DNA of 38,795 bases from a virus: UHGV virus genome UHGV-0423091; one strand, written 5' to 3'. The number at the start of each line of letters is the position of its first letter. Position 1 is the stretch's first letter. The position numbers and the translations under genes are program-made. Under the pieces are notes generated by a model, which saw only the letters and a program-made list of their open reading frames with translations, ran no database searches and was not told where the DNA came from. This document shows positions 3,484 through 33,219 of the stretch, piece by piece.

Positions 3484-3947
3484 TATTTTCTCTCCATGTG
3501 AAATCTGTGGAAATTAAGACCAAGGGCACCATAAGGCGCGGCTTCTTCAAGCCTGAATCCAAGCCAGTGCAGCCATGCTTTGGCAACATGGTTTCGCTCG
3601 TCGACGTAGTTTTCCAGGCGCGGATAAACTGCCAGCATCTGCTGCAATACAGGGCGGCAGTGGCGAAGAAATGTCTTCTGATATTTTTCAATACGGCTGG
3701 TTCCGACCAGCCAGGGCGTACCATTGCCACCGATCATTGACGCCGGAGATACGCCAAACATGGTTACCAGTTCTCCGTTCGCAAATCCTGACCAGGCCAT
3801 AGTCGCAGTACGCAGACCAACACGCAGCGCATCTTCGGTAGTCATCAGTGATACCGCATACAGTTCGTCAATATCAGCCTGACGAACATCCGGCAAAATC
3901 ATCTGAAGATGCTCTTCGGTTGCGGGAATAATTTGAACATCGATCAT
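3483..3947 (-). CDS. hypothetical virion-associated protein, 154 aa
   Basis: Track ORF; translationally coupled on both sides (ATGA overlap at 3945-3949). Confidence 0.5.
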   Translation of the reverse strand: MIDVQIIPATEEHLQMILPDVRQADIDELYAVSLMTTEDALRVGLRTATMAWSGFANGELVTMFGVSPASMIGGNGTPWLVGTSRIEKYQKTFLRHCRPVLQQMLAVYPRLENYVDERNHVAKAWLHWLGFRLEEAAPYGALGLNFHRFHMERK

Positions 3948-11917: not shown

Positions 11918-12124
11918 TTACTGACCAAGCAGCGTTTTACCGCTGGTATTAGCGGTTGATGTGTCGCCCTGAGAACCGGTAAGCAGCGTAGAACTACGAC
12001 CAGCAGCAGCGCGACGGCGACGAGTTTCTTCGTCGCGGGCATCAACAACGGCGGCATCCTGCTCCTGTGGTGCTGCCTGAACTTCTGGTGTTGCAGGCAC
12101 TGATGGTGAGCTACCCATGCACAT
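11918..12124 (-). CDS. small Ala/Arg-rich protein, 68 aa
   Basis: ATG 12124 is preceded by the same GGAGTCATTGA context as the portal start; no recognisable domain. Confidence 0.3.
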   Translation of the reverse strand: MCMGSSPSVPATPEVQAAPQEQDAAVVDARDEETRRRRAAAGRSSTLLTGSQGDTSTANTSGKTLLGQ

Positions 12125-12214
12125 ATCAATGACTCCGTACGCAATTAAATTATTACCAATTTAACCACATATGATTTATTTATCGTAGATAGTTGACATT
12201 TAACGCACAAATTA

Positions 12215-12229
12215 TTACCTTTCAGGTAA
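12215..12229. promoter_or_regulatory. operator-like palindrome TTACC-tttca-GGTAA next to a TTGACA box (12193-12198)
   Basis: Perfect copy of the dispersed 15-bp palindrome, in the intergenic region between the 68-aa gene and the tRNA. Confidence 0.45.
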
Positions 12230-12551
12230 GCAAAGAGTTCATTCCGGTTATTAACCTGACTGGCTTGTCGTTAAATTGAACAGGTGGAGTGAGCTTTTAT
12301 TTTGAGCAGTACGGCGTATGGCACATGCGCCGATAGCGGTCTGGATACGTTTAAGGGGCACCCTCCCTTGCTCGGGCAAACGAACCAGGTAGCCGGAATG
12401 TGCAAGTCGAGCGGTTTTATTCCGCGCACGGGGATTCACCATCCCGGCGATTCGGTGTGACGCCTCGGAAGAGACGAGGGTACAACGATGAGAGCATTTA
12501 TGGAGCCGCGACAAAGTGTGGCGCCTTAACAGGCTAAGTGCTCTCAGCGTT

Positions 12552-12628
12552 GTGGCATTAGCTCAGTTGGACAGAGCAACCGCCTTCTAAGCGGTTGGTC
12601 GCAGGTTCGAATCCTGCATGCCACGCCA
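12552..12628 (+). tRNA. tRNA-Arg (anticodon TCT, reads AGA/AGG), argU-like
   Basis: Hand-folded cloverleaf: 7-bp acceptor GTGGCAT/ATGCCAC, D-arm GCTC...GAGC, anticodon stem ACCGC/GCGGT with loop CTTCTAA, T-arm GCAGG-TTCGAAT-CCTGC, discriminator G and encoded CCA. Confidence 0.85.
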
Positions 12629-12671
12629 GAATCACGCCTAAGGACCGTGATGCCAGAAGTTCCAGGTGCTT

Positions 12672-12715
12672 GGCGGTGATAGTTTCCCTTGAAGGACTAT
12701 CACCGCCCTTTTTAC
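12672..12715 (+). terminator. strong rho-independent terminator after the tRNA
   Basis: Perfect 12-bp stem GGCGGTGATAGT / ACTATCACCGCC with a 12-nt loop, followed by CTTTTT. Confidence 0.7.
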
Positions 12716-12791
12716 AGCAGGACGCCATTGCGATGACTTCATGCTGTAAACCCGTGCAGCCACGGAAGGCATAACTCATTGCTTCCAGTTC

Positions 12792-12815
12792 GCCCGGTTC
12801 GCCGGGCATTTTTTT
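12792..12815 (+). terminator. second intrinsic terminator (GCCCGG-UUCG-CCGGGC plus T7)
   Basis: 6-bp GC stem with UUCG tetraloop followed by seven T. Confidence 0.55.
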
Positions 12816-12831
12816 GCTTGATGACCGCAAA

Positions 12832-12849
12832 TTACCTTAAAGGTATAAT
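12832..12849. promoter_or_regulatory. operator-like site TTACC-ttaaa-GGTAt overlapping a perfect TATAAT (12844-12849) just upstream of the moron gene
   Basis: One-mismatch copy of the dispersed palindrome; consensus -10 hexamer. Confidence 0.4.
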
Positions 12850-12850
12850 C

Positions 12851-13669
12851 ATGAAAAACTTCAAGGTAATTAGCATGTTTGAATCGTTCAAAGAGCTGTT
12901 TTTATCTACTGCCAATACTGCCGTGAATCGAGCCAAAAACCCTGTGCTTGGTGCTTTTGTTATGTCCTGGTGCGCCTTCAACTGGAAATCAATTCTTTAT
13001 CTATTTTTTAGCAAATCAAACATAATAGATAAAATTTCATATATCTCAGATAACAGCACATGGAAAACTGTTATGTTTTATCCATGCTTATCTGTAATTG
13101 CTATCTGCTGCCTATTACCATGGGTAAACAATATCATTAACGTATGGCAAGCAAAGCCTCTTGATAATAATGACTCAATCGAAAATCACCTGAAGGCAAG
13201 AAAAATCCAGCGTGAAACAAGACTGCAGAGGTTATTGGCTAAAAAAGATGTTACATACGACAAAGTTAAGACTGGCGCGGAAAAAGACATCCAAGAGATG
13301 AAAGAAGAGATTATTCGATCAAAGAATAGTATGGGGGAATTGACTGCCGAGTTGAAAGCTAAAGATGACGAATTGAGATCCGCCAGTGCTCAGTTAGCAG
13401 CTCTAAATCATTCATTAAAAGAGATATCGGAAACTCTTGGAAGAATGAATGAGGCATATAAGACCCTCCAAAATGATTTCGACGAATACAAACTCAAATA
13501 CCCTGAAAAATCTCAAATAAAAAGCCTTGAACTTGGCAACGGCCAAACAATTAGCAACTTTTTGGAGCAACACAACTTATCCGGATTAAAATCTGGTAAG
13601 CCAAACGTTTTTAATAACTTTGGTGTTCTATCTGGATTATCAGGTTTCGAGGATAAAAATAAAGACTAA
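12851..13669 (+). CDS. moron: membrane plus coiled-coil protein, 272 aa; candidate superinfection-exclusion or abortive-infection factor
   Basis: Track ORF trimmed to ATG 12851; two predicted transmembrane segments then a long charged helical region; AT-rich; antisense to and converging on the terminase gene. Confidence 0.65.
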   Translation: MKNFKVISMFESFKELFLSTANTAVNRAKNPVLGAFVMSWCAFNWKSILYLFFSKSNIIDKISYISDNSTWKTVMFYPCLSVIAICCLLPWVNNIINVWQAKPLDNNDSIENHLKARKIQRETRLQRLLAKKDVTYDKVKTGAEKDIQEMKEEIIRSKNSMGELTAELKAKDDELRSASAQLAALNHSLKEISETLGRMNEAYKTLQNDFDEYKLKYPEKSQIKSLELGNGQTISNFLEQHNLSGLKSGKPNVFNNFGVLSGLSGFEDKNKD

Positions 13670-20729: not shown

Positions 20730-20744
20730 TTACCTTTGAGGTAC
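20730..20744. promoter_or_regulatory. operator-like site TTACC-tttga-GGTAc
   Basis: One-mismatch palindrome between the post-cro terminator and the 66-aa gene. Confidence 0.4.
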
Positions 20745-20754
20745 GAATAGATAT

Positions 20755-20777
20755 GAAAAGACCGCCGGGTGGCGGTC
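20755..20777 (-). terminator. intrinsic terminator just downstream of the Cro-like gene (tR1-like position)
   Basis: 7-bp stem GACCGCC/GGCGGTC with 4-nt loop followed by TTTT on the minus strand. Confidence 0.5.
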
Positions 20778-20799
20778 TACAGAGGGTTGTAGCTGGATA

Positions 20800-21030
20800 T
20801 CATGAGTAGAAGAAGTATGCCAGTTCTGCTTTTGAGCGCAGCCATTGTCTTGTTTTACAGGCTTTAAAAAGCCCATTCATCAATACTTTACCTGGCATTT
20901 TGCGCTTACCTGTTAAGTGAGTCTGGATATAGTGACTCGTCGTTCCGGCTTCCTGTGCGAAGGCTTCACGCTCATCCGGAGTAAGTGCAAGCCAGTGCTT
21001 TTTGAAATCGAAATGTCCGTTATCGCTCAT
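20800..21030 (-). CDS. Cro-like HTH regulator, 76 aa
   Basis: Divergent from the repressor gene across an operator-rich intergenic region; HTH-like segment FAQEAGTTSHYIQTHLTGKR. Confidence 0.5.
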   Translation of the reverse strand: MSDNGHFDFKKHWLALTPDEREAFAQEAGTTSHYIQTHLTGKRKMPGKVLMNGLFKACKTRQWLRSKAELAYFFYS

Positions 21031-21066
21031 AGCTATTGCCTGATATTTATTTCAGATAATAAATAT

Positions 21067-21129
21067 TCACCCATAAGGTAACAAAAATCAAGGATAGTTA
21101 CCTATGAGGTGCATTTACCTGTTGGGTAA
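21067..21129. promoter_or_regulatory. tripartite operator cluster with divergent promoters between the Cro-like and repressor genes
   Basis: Three palindrome copies: 21067-21081 TcACC-cataa-GGTAA, 21098-21112 TTACC-tatga-GGTgc, 21115-21129 TTACC-tgttg-GGTAA. Confidence 0.6.
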
Positions 21130-21184: not shown

Positions 21185-21769
21185 ATGAAAAGTATCCAGG
21201 ACGTCCGCAGGCAAAATCTCAACGACTTGATCGACCGTGAATTCAATGGTGTTCAGACGCGGATGGCAGAAAAACTTGGAACTCAGGCAAATCTGGTAAA
21301 CCGCTGGGCTCTTGGCAAGAAGGTTATCGGCGACCAGGTTGCACGAAAAATTGAAGCTGCCGCCAATAAACCCCGTAACTGGCTTGATATTGATCGCTCG
21401 CTTTCTCAGGAGGGTTTTCAGCCTGTCGGCCCGAGCGATATAGGTCAGCTGGCGGCTCACAACCTGGAACGCTGGATGAGCGAAAGCCGCGACCTTTCAA
21501 CGCAGGGAAAACTACACCGCGCATCCGGCGTCGCCCAGGTGACAATCAGCCGCCTGTTAAACAATGAGGTCAGCGTTTCCATTTCCACCCTGGAGAATGT
21601 TGCATCCGCATTCGGGCGTCACGGCTATGAATTACTGATTCACCCGCACGACCCTGCGACCATCAACTATGATCGCTCGCGCTACGCATTGTTACCCGAA
21701 ACCGAGAAAGCAAAGATCGAAAGTTACATTGAATTTGTCATCAACCAGAACGAAAAAAACAAACAATAA
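21185..21769 (+). CDS. phage repressor (CI role), 194 aa, two HTH-like segments, no S24 peptidase domain
   Basis: Divergent from the Cro-like gene; HTH-like segments near residues 25-45 and 110-135; no Ala-Gly/Ser-Lys autocleavage module; no SD (leaderless-like start). Confidence 0.65.
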   Translation: MKSIQDVRRQNLNDLIDREFNGVQTRMAEKLGTQANLVNRWALGKKVIGDQVARKIEAAANKPRNWLDIDRSLSQEGFQPVGPSDIGQLAAHNLERWMSESRDLSTQGKLHRASGVAQVTISRLLNNEVSVSISTLENVASAFGRHGYELLIHPHDPATINYDRSRYALLPETEKAKIESYIEFVINQNEKNKQ

Positions 21770-32222: not shown

Positions 32223-32265
32223 TTGCAATTACCAAGTGGAGTGCTTATATTTACCATTGCGGTAA
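32223..32265 (+). promoter_or_regulatory. sigma70-like promoter (TTGCAA-N17-TATATT) with operator-like site TTACC-attgc-GGTAA (32251-32265) over the start region
   Basis: Near-consensus -35/-10 with 17-bp spacer; palindrome overlaps the -10 and predicted +1. Confidence 0.45.
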
Positions 32266-32532
32266 ATTTACATCGCACTCCTCTTGTGCCATAGTAATCG
32301 GGCACTGGCAAAATCCAGTGCCGGGATTGGCGTTCCGGATTACTACAGAGGCACATATGCCGCATAAGCGGTTTTTTTATGTGTAAAGCGCACCTATTCT
32401 ATGGTGGGCTGTGTGGGGGCACCGAAAGGTGCGCCGGGTTCCTTTGTAGCCGGTTACGCCAACCCTGCACAGTTCACCACCAACCGATTGGCGTCGGTAG
32501 TGGTGATTAACCTAACTACAAAGGTGATCACT

Positions 32533-33219
32533 ATGACTGCTAACGTAACCCCATCTGTTTTTCATTTTGAATCAGAAGCAACCATTCGAGCCATTGTTAT
32601 TGATGGAAATCCTTGGTTTGTTGCCAAAGACGTTATTAAAGCTCTTCAACTGACAAACCCCACTATGTCAATAAAATCTCTTGATGATGATGAAAGGGCT
32701 AAATTTAACTTAGGCCGTCAAGGCGAAACCAATATTATCAACGAGTCAGGCCTCTACACACTGATCCTCCGCTGCCGCGACGCAGTGACACCAGGCACTA
32801 TCCCCTACCGCTTTCGTAAATGGGTTACAGGTGAGGTTCTTCCTCAGATCCGCCGCACCGGAAGTTACATTAAAAACTCGCTCCCGCAGGAAGAACGCAT
32901 AAAGATGGTTGCCGACCAAGTAGCCAACGCCACGGCGTCAGCAGTGATGCAGGCAATGAAGATAGAGAACAAAACCTACAGTGCACCACTGAAGCCCGGC
33001 TACCGCAGCCTGATTCATTCGCCGTCTGGTGTTCTCGGCCTGACGGAGAACTCACTGCTGATGAATTTGCTGAACCAGTTACAGGAAGACGGGCATGACG
33101 TATCGGGCGCGGCGGCGGAGCTGACCACCATGTTCTGCTACATCGTCGGTGTGAGCAAATGCCTGCGTGATATCCAGACGCACGCGGAGTACATCAACGA
33201 CAAAGCAGGGTTCTTCTGA
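32533..33219 (+). CDS. antirepressor, Bro-N domain family, 228 aa
   Basis: Track ORF 32401..33219 trimmed to ATG 32533 (AAGGTG SD); N-terminal Bro-N-like segment IRAIVIDGNPWFVAKDV...LYTLILRC. Confidence 0.7.
   Translation: MTANVTPSVFHFESEATIRAIVIDGNPWFVAKDVIKALQLTNPTMSIKSLDDDERAKFNLGRQGETNIINESGLYTLILRCRDAVTPGTIPYRFRKWVTGEVLPQIRRTGSYIKNSLPQEERIKMVADQVANATASAVMQAMKIENKTYSAPLKPGYRSLIHSPSGVLGLTENSLLMNLLNQLQEDGHDVSGAAAELTTMFCYIVGVSKCLRDIQTHAEYINDKAGFF

Follow-up and report, generated by a model that had tools for sequence, protein, structure and literature searches.

What is the stretch of about 320 bp that precedes a phage-borne tRNA gene in the virus genome UHGV-0423091: the remains of a captured host locus, a leader that is cut away, or an RNA in its own right? 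The window analysed here is the whole 38,795-nucleotide stretch. It belongs to an epsilon15-like phage (Uetakevirus) and, over positions 12100-12815, shares 98-99% identity with phiV10, TL-2011b and the O157 typing phages 9 and 10. A sequence-only reading of 12230-12815 had listed a tRNA-Arg(UCU) behind an unexplained leader with local hairpins, a promoter box with an operator-like site, two terminators and a 13-codon open reading frame (ORF), and each of these items is present on checking. Its interpretation has to be divided: the argU-like tRNA and the processed leader stand, while the remnant of a host locus falls. It had also overlooked that the leader family is common to P1 and lambdoid phages, that the first terminator resembles DicF, and that the short ORF is not conserved.

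We conclude with high confidence that 12193-12815 is a small operon of non-coding RNAs under a repressor-controlled early promoter, and that its leader belongs to a conserved RNA family not described in the literature we searched. With the same high confidence we place its parts in the order promoter and operator, module A, module B, tRNA-Arg(UCU), hairpin H, a small-RNA-like terminator and a second short conserved unit that runs to terminator 2. The novelty lies in the leader. The tRNA was already known and is annotated in some GenBank records, whereas for the RNA family to which the leader belongs we found no description.

A conserved pseudoknotted RNA upstream of the tRNA

The leader can be divided into a 5' segment and two modules, A and B, with the following features.

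12230-12311, + strand: 5' leader segment upstream of module A, conserved among epsilon15-like phages only (alignments)
12312-12479, + strand: module A, five helices including a pseudoknot, composed of A1 and A2 (alignment and pair counts)
12312-12406, + strand: module A1, with helix P1, the junction AUAGCGGU, helix P2 and a 19-mer
12312-12319 paired with 12325-12332, + strand: helix P1, loop GGCAC, 8 pairs, 97% of cells paired
12340-12343 paired with 12386-12389, + strand: helix P2, distal part variable, 100% paired, C-G changed to U-A in 8 sequences
12388-12406, + strand: the 19-mer GGTAGCCGGAATGTGCAAG, nearly invariant
12407-12479, + strand: module A2, with P3, P4, the pseudoknot and P5
about 12409-12427, + strand: variable hairpin P3, part of A2
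12431-12434 paired with 12442-12445, + strand: helix P4, loop UUCACCA, 99% paired, three of four pairs with compensatory changes
12437-12440 (CACC) paired with 12454-12457 (GGUG), + strand: pseudoknot, concerted changes
12463-12467 paired with 12475-12479, + strand: helix P5, loop GAAGAGA, four of five pairs with compensatory changes
12482-12553, + strand: module B (minimum free energy fold and visible compensatory versions)

The fold of module A is carried by pair statistics from an alignment of 39 cluster representatives, covering 25 pairs in five helices. A standard pair is formed in 96.9% of the cells, and this value falls to 27-56% when the 3' partners are slid by one to three columns. 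Compensatory changes are seen in 12 of the 25 pairs, and none of 500 shuffles reaches the observed values. In P1, for example, columns 9:21 hold G-C in 16 sequences and A-U in 22. A wider tally, noisy because its loose pattern admits many false hits, gave about ten pair combinations for P4 and, for the pseudoknot, roughly 19 cases of AACC:GGUU against roughly 130 of CACC:GGUG. The AACC:GGUU version occurs in at least two P4 backgrounds, and there is no mixed case, one copy having a single mismatch. The hairpin CCTCG-GAAGAGA-CGAGG, which had already caught the eye in the sequence-only reading, is the covarying helix P5 at 12463-12479. On the opposite strand the many G-U pairs would turn into C-A mismatches, which assigns the fold to the + strand. 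The leader as a whole is also unusually structured (z-score -2.3).

The most constrained part of module A is not a helix. An independent anchor, the P5 region, yielded 133 copies, of which 110 have the exact 19-mer and 13 have it one base off; its invariance is thus not an artefact of having searched with the 19-mer itself. RNAalifold proposed a long-range pairing between GCACAU in the P1 loop and stem and AUGUGC in the 19-mer. We did not adopt it: both sides are nearly invariant and single variants in these segments at two related loci show no change in the partner, whereas the local P1 hairpin does covary.

The segment between 12230 and 12551 had been taken to be non-coding, and it remains so when frameshifts are considered. 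Between the conserved blocks, segment lengths differ by non-multiples of three and no frame is open in all copies; for this reason the hypothetical proteins that some GenBank records annotate across the leader are not credible, and genome annotation should stop calling them. Compensatory pairs, strand-specific G-U pairs and the lack of a conserved reading frame together characterise a structured non-coding RNA. It matches no catalogued family: the Rfam 15 covariance models returned nothing for 12230-12551 at gathering scores, and nothing at E-values up to 10. The copy in phage cdtI gave two weak matches at chance level (E above 1), neither to a related family. No paper was retrieved when the full-text literature was searched for the 19-mer, in either orientation and in DNA and RNA spelling, and topic searches of the literature found no description of the leader RNA.

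A family shared by epsilon15-like phages, lambdoid phages and P1

A sensitive BLAST search with 12290-12551 recovered 83 phage records, and the upstream stretch is 70-100% identical to sequence in these records and in 1840 of 5426 complete Escherichia coli genomes (34%), with 554 copies on plasmids. Among the matches listed, no RNA feature is annotated under the match. Other epsilon15-like phages of Salmonella, Klebsiella and Enterobacter carry the leader at about 70% identity, also upstream of a tRNA-Arg. The lambdoid phages cdtI, mEp460, mEp390, Ayreon, 2H10, the Stx2c phages and Stx2a_1447/WGPS2 have it at about 82% identity, and P1, P7 and the P1-like phage-plasmids at about 79%. The segment that precedes module A differs between these groups: lambdoid phages have a 5' hairpin there, and P1 has a 16-nt spacer after trnI.

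The 19-mer picks up more than 120 contigs in IMG/VR and 24 loci in GTDB species representatives, of which 22 are in Enterobacteriaceae genera and two are doubtful metagenome-assembled contigs of Bacillota. These last two come from genomes labelled Oscillospiraceae and Bacillota: one locus shares only about 22 nt with the leader, and the other, a contig of 1.7 kb, has the full element, which probably reflects contamination or mis-binning. The leader is restricted to temperate phages of Enterobacteriaceae. As a side observation, in Enterobacter phage Tyrion an int-alpA RNA (3598-3662 of the compared locus; 44 bits, gathering score 35.8) lies downstream of the element.

The tRNA occupies a slot in a composite leader

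Module B is closed by a stem of 15 bp, ACAACGATGAGAGCA at 12482-12496 with TGCTCTCAGCGTTGT at 12539-12553, inside which lie two small hairpins. The 3' strand of this stem extends over the first two tRNA bases, so that the stem stands directly against the acceptor stem. Compensatory versions of the stem are found in other lineages, such as AACCAAAAGAGCGC/GCGCTCTTTTTGTT in L120 (L-numbers label the related loci that we compared with the window, with L003 standing for P1 and L134 for phage LLS); the support for module B comes from the fold and from these visible compensatory versions.

The modules are separable. P1 has A without B, and phage LLS has B without A, while L177, L163 and L204 have only the A2 half (P3, P4, the pseudoknot and P5, without P1 and P2). 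In these three loci the predicted transcription start falls at the start of A2 or only a few bases away from it. On the minus strand of LLS, module B lies at 32140-32070, a terminator-like hairpin takes the place of module A, and a second B-like long stem, at about 31895-31781, precedes the first early gene.

What follows module B also varies. Across the 132 loci with the 19-mer, 28 have a tRNA-Arg(UCU) directly after B, 17, all of them P1-like, have a tRNA-Ile2 located 16 nt before A, and 87 have no adjacent tRNA. In the tRNA-less loci examined, module B is followed by a conserved GUUGU|GG and then by a branched domain of 70-115 nt; GUGGU...ACCAC closes this domain, and AAC comes next. D- and T-arms can be recognised in the L177 version, where about 70 nt are inserted between them. 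Such tRNA-like domains were noted at L002 (3245-3357) and L177 (8176-8297), and also in L010, L047, L076, L088, L113 and L120; ARAGORN calls none of the lambdoid ones as a tRNA. In the lambdoid relatives, therefore, a tRNA-like domain closed by GUGG/CCAC fills the position that is held by the tRNA here.

Both versions are followed by the same kind of unit. A hairpin that we call H comes after the tRNA in the epsilon15-like phages and after the tRNA-like domain in L047, L076, L088 and L127. Since the unit of H and terminator is shared, the tRNA sits in a slot of a conserved composite leader, and the leader is not an appendage of the tRNA. The sequence-only reading had suggested a processed leader or a small RNA, and this was the right direction: what adjoins the tRNA without a gap is a conserved structured RNA. 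By established tRNA biology, maturation of the tRNA 5' end requires RNase P to cleave between 12551 and 12552, and this cut would release the leader as a separate RNA of about 320 nt.

Promoter, operators and repressor control

Two further features lie at and before the start of the leader.

12193-12221, + strand: putative early promoter, -35 box TTGACA at 12193-12198, 17-nt spacer and weak -10 box TACCTT at 12216-12221 (read from the sequence)
12215-12229, strand not applicable: operator palindrome TTACCTTTCAGGTAA, overlapping the -10 box (motif count)

The TTGACA box, previously described as overlapping an operator-like site, thus lies just outside the region where the earlier description began. 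A consensus promoter scan did not list 12193-12221, because its -10 box is poor, and we assign it as the promoter from its position and from the overlapping operator. The motif TTACCT-N3-AGGTAA, with up to two mismatches, occurs at 19 sites in the window against 0.83 expected, and none of 100 shuffles reaches 19. The sites include those at 12215, 12832, 18784, 20730-21129, 21827, 21889, 31871 and 33292. Five copies cluster at 20730-21129, beside a helix-turn-helix repressor-like gene (21185-21769) and the replication genes, and the copy at 12832-12846 overlaps the promoter of the ORF that follows the operon. This distribution suggests that the phage repressor would bind these sites, which probably form a dispersed operator set resembling the C1 operators of P1.

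The other carriers point the same way. Lambdoid carriers have the order cI, terminator, PL with its operators, and then the element; the P1 copy sits between trnI and ban, within the ban operon that is controlled by C1 operators. The common denominator of these contexts is a sense orientation downstream of an early promoter that is, or is likely to be, repressor-controlled.

A separate observation concerns another operator copy, at 32251, which precedes an antirepressor control region. There, isrK (71 bits) and the C4 antisense RNA (84 bits) are found at 32302-32484, both above their Rfam gathering thresholds and placed before a Bro-N/Ash antirepressor ORF (32401-33219). The epsilon15-like phage has here an immI control module of the P1 type. 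In the lambdoid carriers cdtI, Stx2a_1447 and Ayreon, the isrK and C4 pair likewise comes with an antirepressor gene at that position.

A possible role in early transcription

Our leading, tentative reading is that module A is a cis-acting element for transcription elongation. It would fold on the nascent transcript soon after RNA polymerase leaves the promoter, and it would act in cis to keep the polymerase elongating through a long, untranslated early leader that contains terminators. It would then be a functional analogue, not a homologue, of the put RNA of HK022 or of the N/nut system. In the lambdoid carriers, none of which showed an N gene after PL among those examined, module A would let the early-left genes be reached. 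In the epsilon15-like phage, it would secure the synthesis of the tRNA and of the downstream small RNAs, after which two strong tandem terminators would stop the polymerase.

Several observations are consistent with such a role. The element lies immediately after early promoters, and in some phages its A2 half starts at the transcription start; putL has been placed likewise at the transcription start (PMC9378689). Moreover, the lambdoid carriers have a non-coding leader of 400-900 nt with terminator-like hairpins before the first gene, which is the same yfdP-family gene as in phage LLS. The authors who described LLS reported no N homologue and suggested an RNA mechanism (PMC12315714). The two strong terminators that end the unit are compatible with the cis-acting role and not specific to it; one study describes long-stem terminators as resistant to processive antitermination (PMC10325885).

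A number of facts, however, weigh against this proposal. In P1 about 2.3 kb separate Pban from the element, which comes after a terminator-like hairpin and lies immediately in front of ban, and CRISPRi data indicate that the P1 operon with the element is dispensable for plaque formation (PMC10695390). Phage LLS is reported to lack N and yet also lacks module A, keeping only module B. There is a single copy of the element per phage and none in the right operon, while HK022 has put in both; a second copy was searched for, and not found, in the LLS and HK639 genomes, in the flanks of the right operons of cdtI, Ayreon and Stx2a_1447, and in the window. In the window, terminators come after the unit and a separate promoter serves the next ORF, so that read-through is not obviously needed. 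Terminators downstream in the sense direction are only modestly enriched, being found by a strict finder at 44 of 94 unique loci against 27 of 94 for the antisense direction. In addition, the element has no significant similarity to put or to lambda nutL, contains no ops site, and is accompanied by a canonical boxA at only 2 of 67 loci.

Other explanations for the leader

Nearly as likely as a cis-acting role is that module A, or A together with B, is a stable RNA that the tRNA-processing machinery cuts out and that acts elsewhere in the cell, an idea that we also hold tentatively. RNase P would make the cut at 12551/12552 here, and in P1 the RNA would arise from 3' processing of trnI; once released, it would bind and sequester or redirect, early in the lytic cycle, a conserved host factor or a component of host defence. 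The surroundings of the element speak for this. It abuts a tRNA in 45 of the 132 loci (the 28 with tRNA-Arg after it and the 17 with tRNA-Ile2 before it) and elsewhere a tRNA-like domain closed by GUGG/CCAC, it is found in arrays together with further non-coding RNAs, such as a tRNA and DicF-like terminator units, and several carriers also use the C4 RNA, which is matured by RNase P. A near-invariant, single-stranded 19-mer would suit recognition of an invariant host partner, and an accessory function agrees with an element that is non-essential in P1 and stands alone before ban there. The mosaic of sub-modules with variable ends, in which A1 can be absent and B can occur without A, fits a single defined product less well, and the proposed RNA has no known partner. 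Less probable, and in our view rather unlikely, is that the leader is only a scaffold for folding and processing, which guides RNase P, RNase III and RNase E to the tRNA or tRNA-like domain and the small RNAs, or shields the untranslated precursor from decay or Rho, with no separate target. The 15-bp duplex of module B placed directly against the acceptor stem would serve this well, as would the unusual degree of structure of the whole leader, and lambdoid leaders have a second B-like long stem just before the first gene, which recalls the RNase III site in the lambda N leader. A scaffold leaves unexplained, though, why a 19-nt unpaired stretch and the loops are invariant across copies that are 53-70% identical elsewhere, and in P1 module A is present without a following tRNA or tRNA-like domain.

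The conservation pattern of module A, with invariant junctions and loops, covarying stems and a pseudoknot, is also typical of aptamers. Module A might then be a riboswitch-like sensor of a metabolite, ion or signalling nucleotide that reports the state of the host and would set how much of the early transcript passes the downstream stems; its position in a 5' leader and the way in which the downstream modules vary, like expression platforms, would agree with this. We consider a sensor improbable, as no Rfam riboswitch matches even when E-values of up to 10 are admitted, module A has no terminator or ribosome-site hairpin overlapping its 3' end (in the window a tRNA follows), and there is no link to a class of metabolic genes. 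The conserved pseudoknotted core could alternatively be that of a self-cleaving ribozyme that trims the precursor, for example by freeing the 3' end of an upstream tRNA or by making a 5'-OH. Ribozymes next to phage tRNAs are known and the element adjoins tRNAs, including one 16 nt upstream of it in P1 (trnI), but no Rfam ribozyme family matches and the topology, with the local P1 hairpin first, is unlike the HDV-like, twister, hatchet and pistol folds, which makes this very unlikely. Lowest of all stands the view that a host argU locus was captured and left the leader as a neutral remnant, or that frameshifts hide a protein gene there. It had in its favour an argU-like tRNA and the hypothetical proteins annotated in some GenBank records. 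It is already contradicted by the strong selection on RNA pairing, by the frames and non-triplet length differences described above, by the 87 loci that keep the leader with no tRNA beside it, and by the flanks of the K-12 argU gene, which have no similarity to the leader or the trailer; furthermore, all copies examined are in a phage, prophage or phage-plasmid context.

Comparison with known RNA systems

The nearest functional comparison is put. As in HK022 and HK639, the element in the lambdoid relatives is a structured RNA located right after PL in phages without N and is made first by the polymerase, and the 5' half of module A consists of two stem-loops joined by a short junction. This put-like location is found in the lambdoid relatives and does not apply to the window or to P1. 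In contrast to put, which is about 70 nt, module A is about 170 nt with a pseudoknot, occurs once per phage, and is also present in P1 and, upstream of a tRNA, in the epsilon15-like phages. We rejected homology to put: nhmmer with a profile of module A finds nothing at the put loci (putL and putR of HK022, putL of HK639), shuffled sequences score as well as or better than the best local alignments in 122 of 300 cases for HK022 and in 224 of 300 for HK639, and an apparent match, ACGGCG...CAUGCGUCG..AGCG, is no better than shuffles.

Likeness to lambda nut is similarly limited. The two have the same place in the PL leader, P5 resembles nutL boxB in being a 5-bp hairpin with a loop that starts with GAAGA, and the 3' strand of module B begins with (U)GCUCU like boxA and continues into a GU-rich stretch. 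The resemblance of P5 to boxB lies only in the stem length and the start of the loop, the boxA-like stretch is base-paired, and the carriers examined have no N gene visible after PL. Homology to lambda nutL was rejected, since 281 of 300 shuffles score at least as well. The canonical boxA is YGCUCUUUA, for which the 2 of 67 loci were given above; the shorter GCTCTTT is weakly enriched, at 22 of 67 loci downstream in sense against 5 antisense and 11 upstream. Taken with the lack of a visible N and of similarity to nutL, these counts do not identify a nut site. An RfaH/ops site was rejected as well, since GGCGGTAGnnTG has no match in 12193-12815 and four one-mismatch matches elsewhere in the window against 1.84 expected; the 19-mer contains GGTAG, without the GGCGG prefix of ops.

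Non-coding RNAs of temperate phages that are released by tRNA-processing enzymes have precedents in the C4 RNA of P1 and P7 and the CI RNA of P4, and C4 itself is present in the window (with isrK, as described above) and in several carriers. The leader differs from C4 in that their sequences and folds are unrelated and C4 is an antisense RNA with a known target, whereas the leader has no known target. GOLLD and ROOL are likewise ornate, conserved, phage-encoded RNAs of unknown function that are often adjacent to tRNAs; the leader is much smaller (about 245 nt for A and B), has no Rfam match, is restricted to Enterobacteriaceae and lies at early promoters.

It is tempting to speculate, although the whole of it seems to us rather less likely than its opposite, that module A represents an RNA class of its own that binds the polymerase or a host factor and has no relation to put, nut and EAR. 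Temperate Enterobacteriaceae phages, P1 and Stx2 phages among them, would then produce it first when their early promoters are derepressed. It could be an antiterminator that replaces N or a decoy against a host regulator or defence component, and the tRNA or tRNA-like domain could be the signal for its release by RNase P. What makes the question worth pursuing is that a deeply conserved pseudoknotted RNA is present in about one third of complete E. coli genomes, in P1 and in phages that convert for Stx2a and Stx2c, and that it sits where lambdoid phages without N must solve early antitermination, a gap explicitly stated as open in the 2025 paper on phage LLS (PMC12315714). Should it act on RNA polymerase, it would represent a class of RNA antiterminators unrelated to put in very well-studied hosts; should it act in trans, phages, Shiga-toxin phages among them, would express a new kind of RNA effector at induction.

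The tRNA and the units behind it

The remaining features of the operon, and the unit that follows it, are these.

12552-12628, + strand: tRNA-Arg, anticodon UCU, argU-like (ARAGORN, Rfam and alignment with K-12 argU)
12631-12651, + strand: hairpin H, ATCACG-CCTAAGGAC-CGTGAT (conserved in relatives)
12661-12713, + strand: terminator 1 with an upstream seed-like stretch, a DicF-like unit (terminator scan and Rfam DicF)
12714-12815, + strand: conserved stretch behind terminator 1, with the 13-codon ORF, a 13-mer and terminator 2 (25 trailers)
12792-12815, + strand: terminator 2 with its T-run (terminator scan)
12821-13669, + strand: separate unit, promoter ATGACC-17-TATAAT at 12821-12849, operator at 12832-12846 and ORF at 12851-13669 (promoter scan)

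The tRNA is complete, as had been claimed for it. ARAGORN calls a single tRNA in the whole window, this tRNA-Arg with anticodon TCT at 12552-12628, and the Rfam tRNA model (RF00005) scores it at 73.3 bits against a gathering score of 29; with a cloverleaf above threshold, the UCU anticodon and a CCA encoded at 12626-12628, it belongs to the Arg-UCU isoacceptors. Its likeness to argU is also real: the anticodon, D-arm, anticodon loop and T-arm are identical to those of K-12 argU. The two differ at 13 of 77 positions, mostly by compensatory changes in the acceptor and anticodon stems, and their flanks are unrelated. The 40 long ORFs of the window contain 6.8 AGA and 4.3 AGG per 1000 codons, and most of these codons fall outside the head genes. 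These frequencies are roughly three times the typical E. coli usage, which makes the usual rare-codon rationale plausible, and the tRNA presumably serves AGA codons like other phage-borne copies. The tRNA itself is ordinary, and the leader is the interesting part of the locus.

Both terminators proposed earlier are confirmed as G+C-rich hairpins followed by a T-run, and transcription is predicted to end at each. The stem of terminator 1 (12672-12707) has 14 pairs, within which lies the perfect 12-bp run GGCGGTGATAGT/ACTATCACCGCC, and is followed by CTTTTT. The UUCG-loop hairpin of terminator 2, GCCCGG-TTCG-CCGGGC, occupies 12792-12807, and behind it comes ATTTTTTT, which includes seven T in a row.

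The unit of terminator 1 aligns over its full length to Rfam DicF (RF00039) at 12661-12708, but with 16.9 bits against a gathering score of 48, so that it is not a member of DicF and the relation is one of resemblance only. The unit also holds the position that DicF-like units have in early-left operons, and a comparable unit (TTGGCGGT..., hairpin and T-run) ends the PL leaders of lambdoid phages. The P1 operon that holds module A also includes a region annotated as dicF-like (L003 680-870; P1 68702-68892). By eye, this region and the bases before it resemble a tRNA-like domain plus terminator, with a lambdoid counterpart in the cdtI-type PL leader (L002 3245-3412); from this likeness, P1 seems to have parts of the composite leader arranged in another order.

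At the nucleotide level, 25 distinct epsilon15-like trailers share the stretch between the terminators as a conserved segment. The 13-codon ORF is present as reported, with its ATG at 12733 and its stop at 12772-12774, but it is not conserved as an ORF, as its length is not kept in the relatives and it reads through in those of Klebsiella. Behind it, the 13-mer CATTGCTTCCAGT at 12777-12789 is identical to 13 nt of the RyhB core and is absent from the Klebsiella-type relatives. Membership in RyhB (RF00057) was rejected at 18.6 bits against a gathering score of 55. We note that the terminator after CATTGCTTCCAGT is of the Hfq type. Both terminator units are candidate small RNAs, nothing more.

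The operon ends at 12815, after which the phiV10-like phages diverge. The next promoter, at 12821-12849, has 10 of 12 consensus matches, and the 272-aa product of the ORF at 12851-13669 has no Pfam family above the cut-off. As this ORF differs among otherwise near-identical phiV10-like phages, it is a variable add-on gene.

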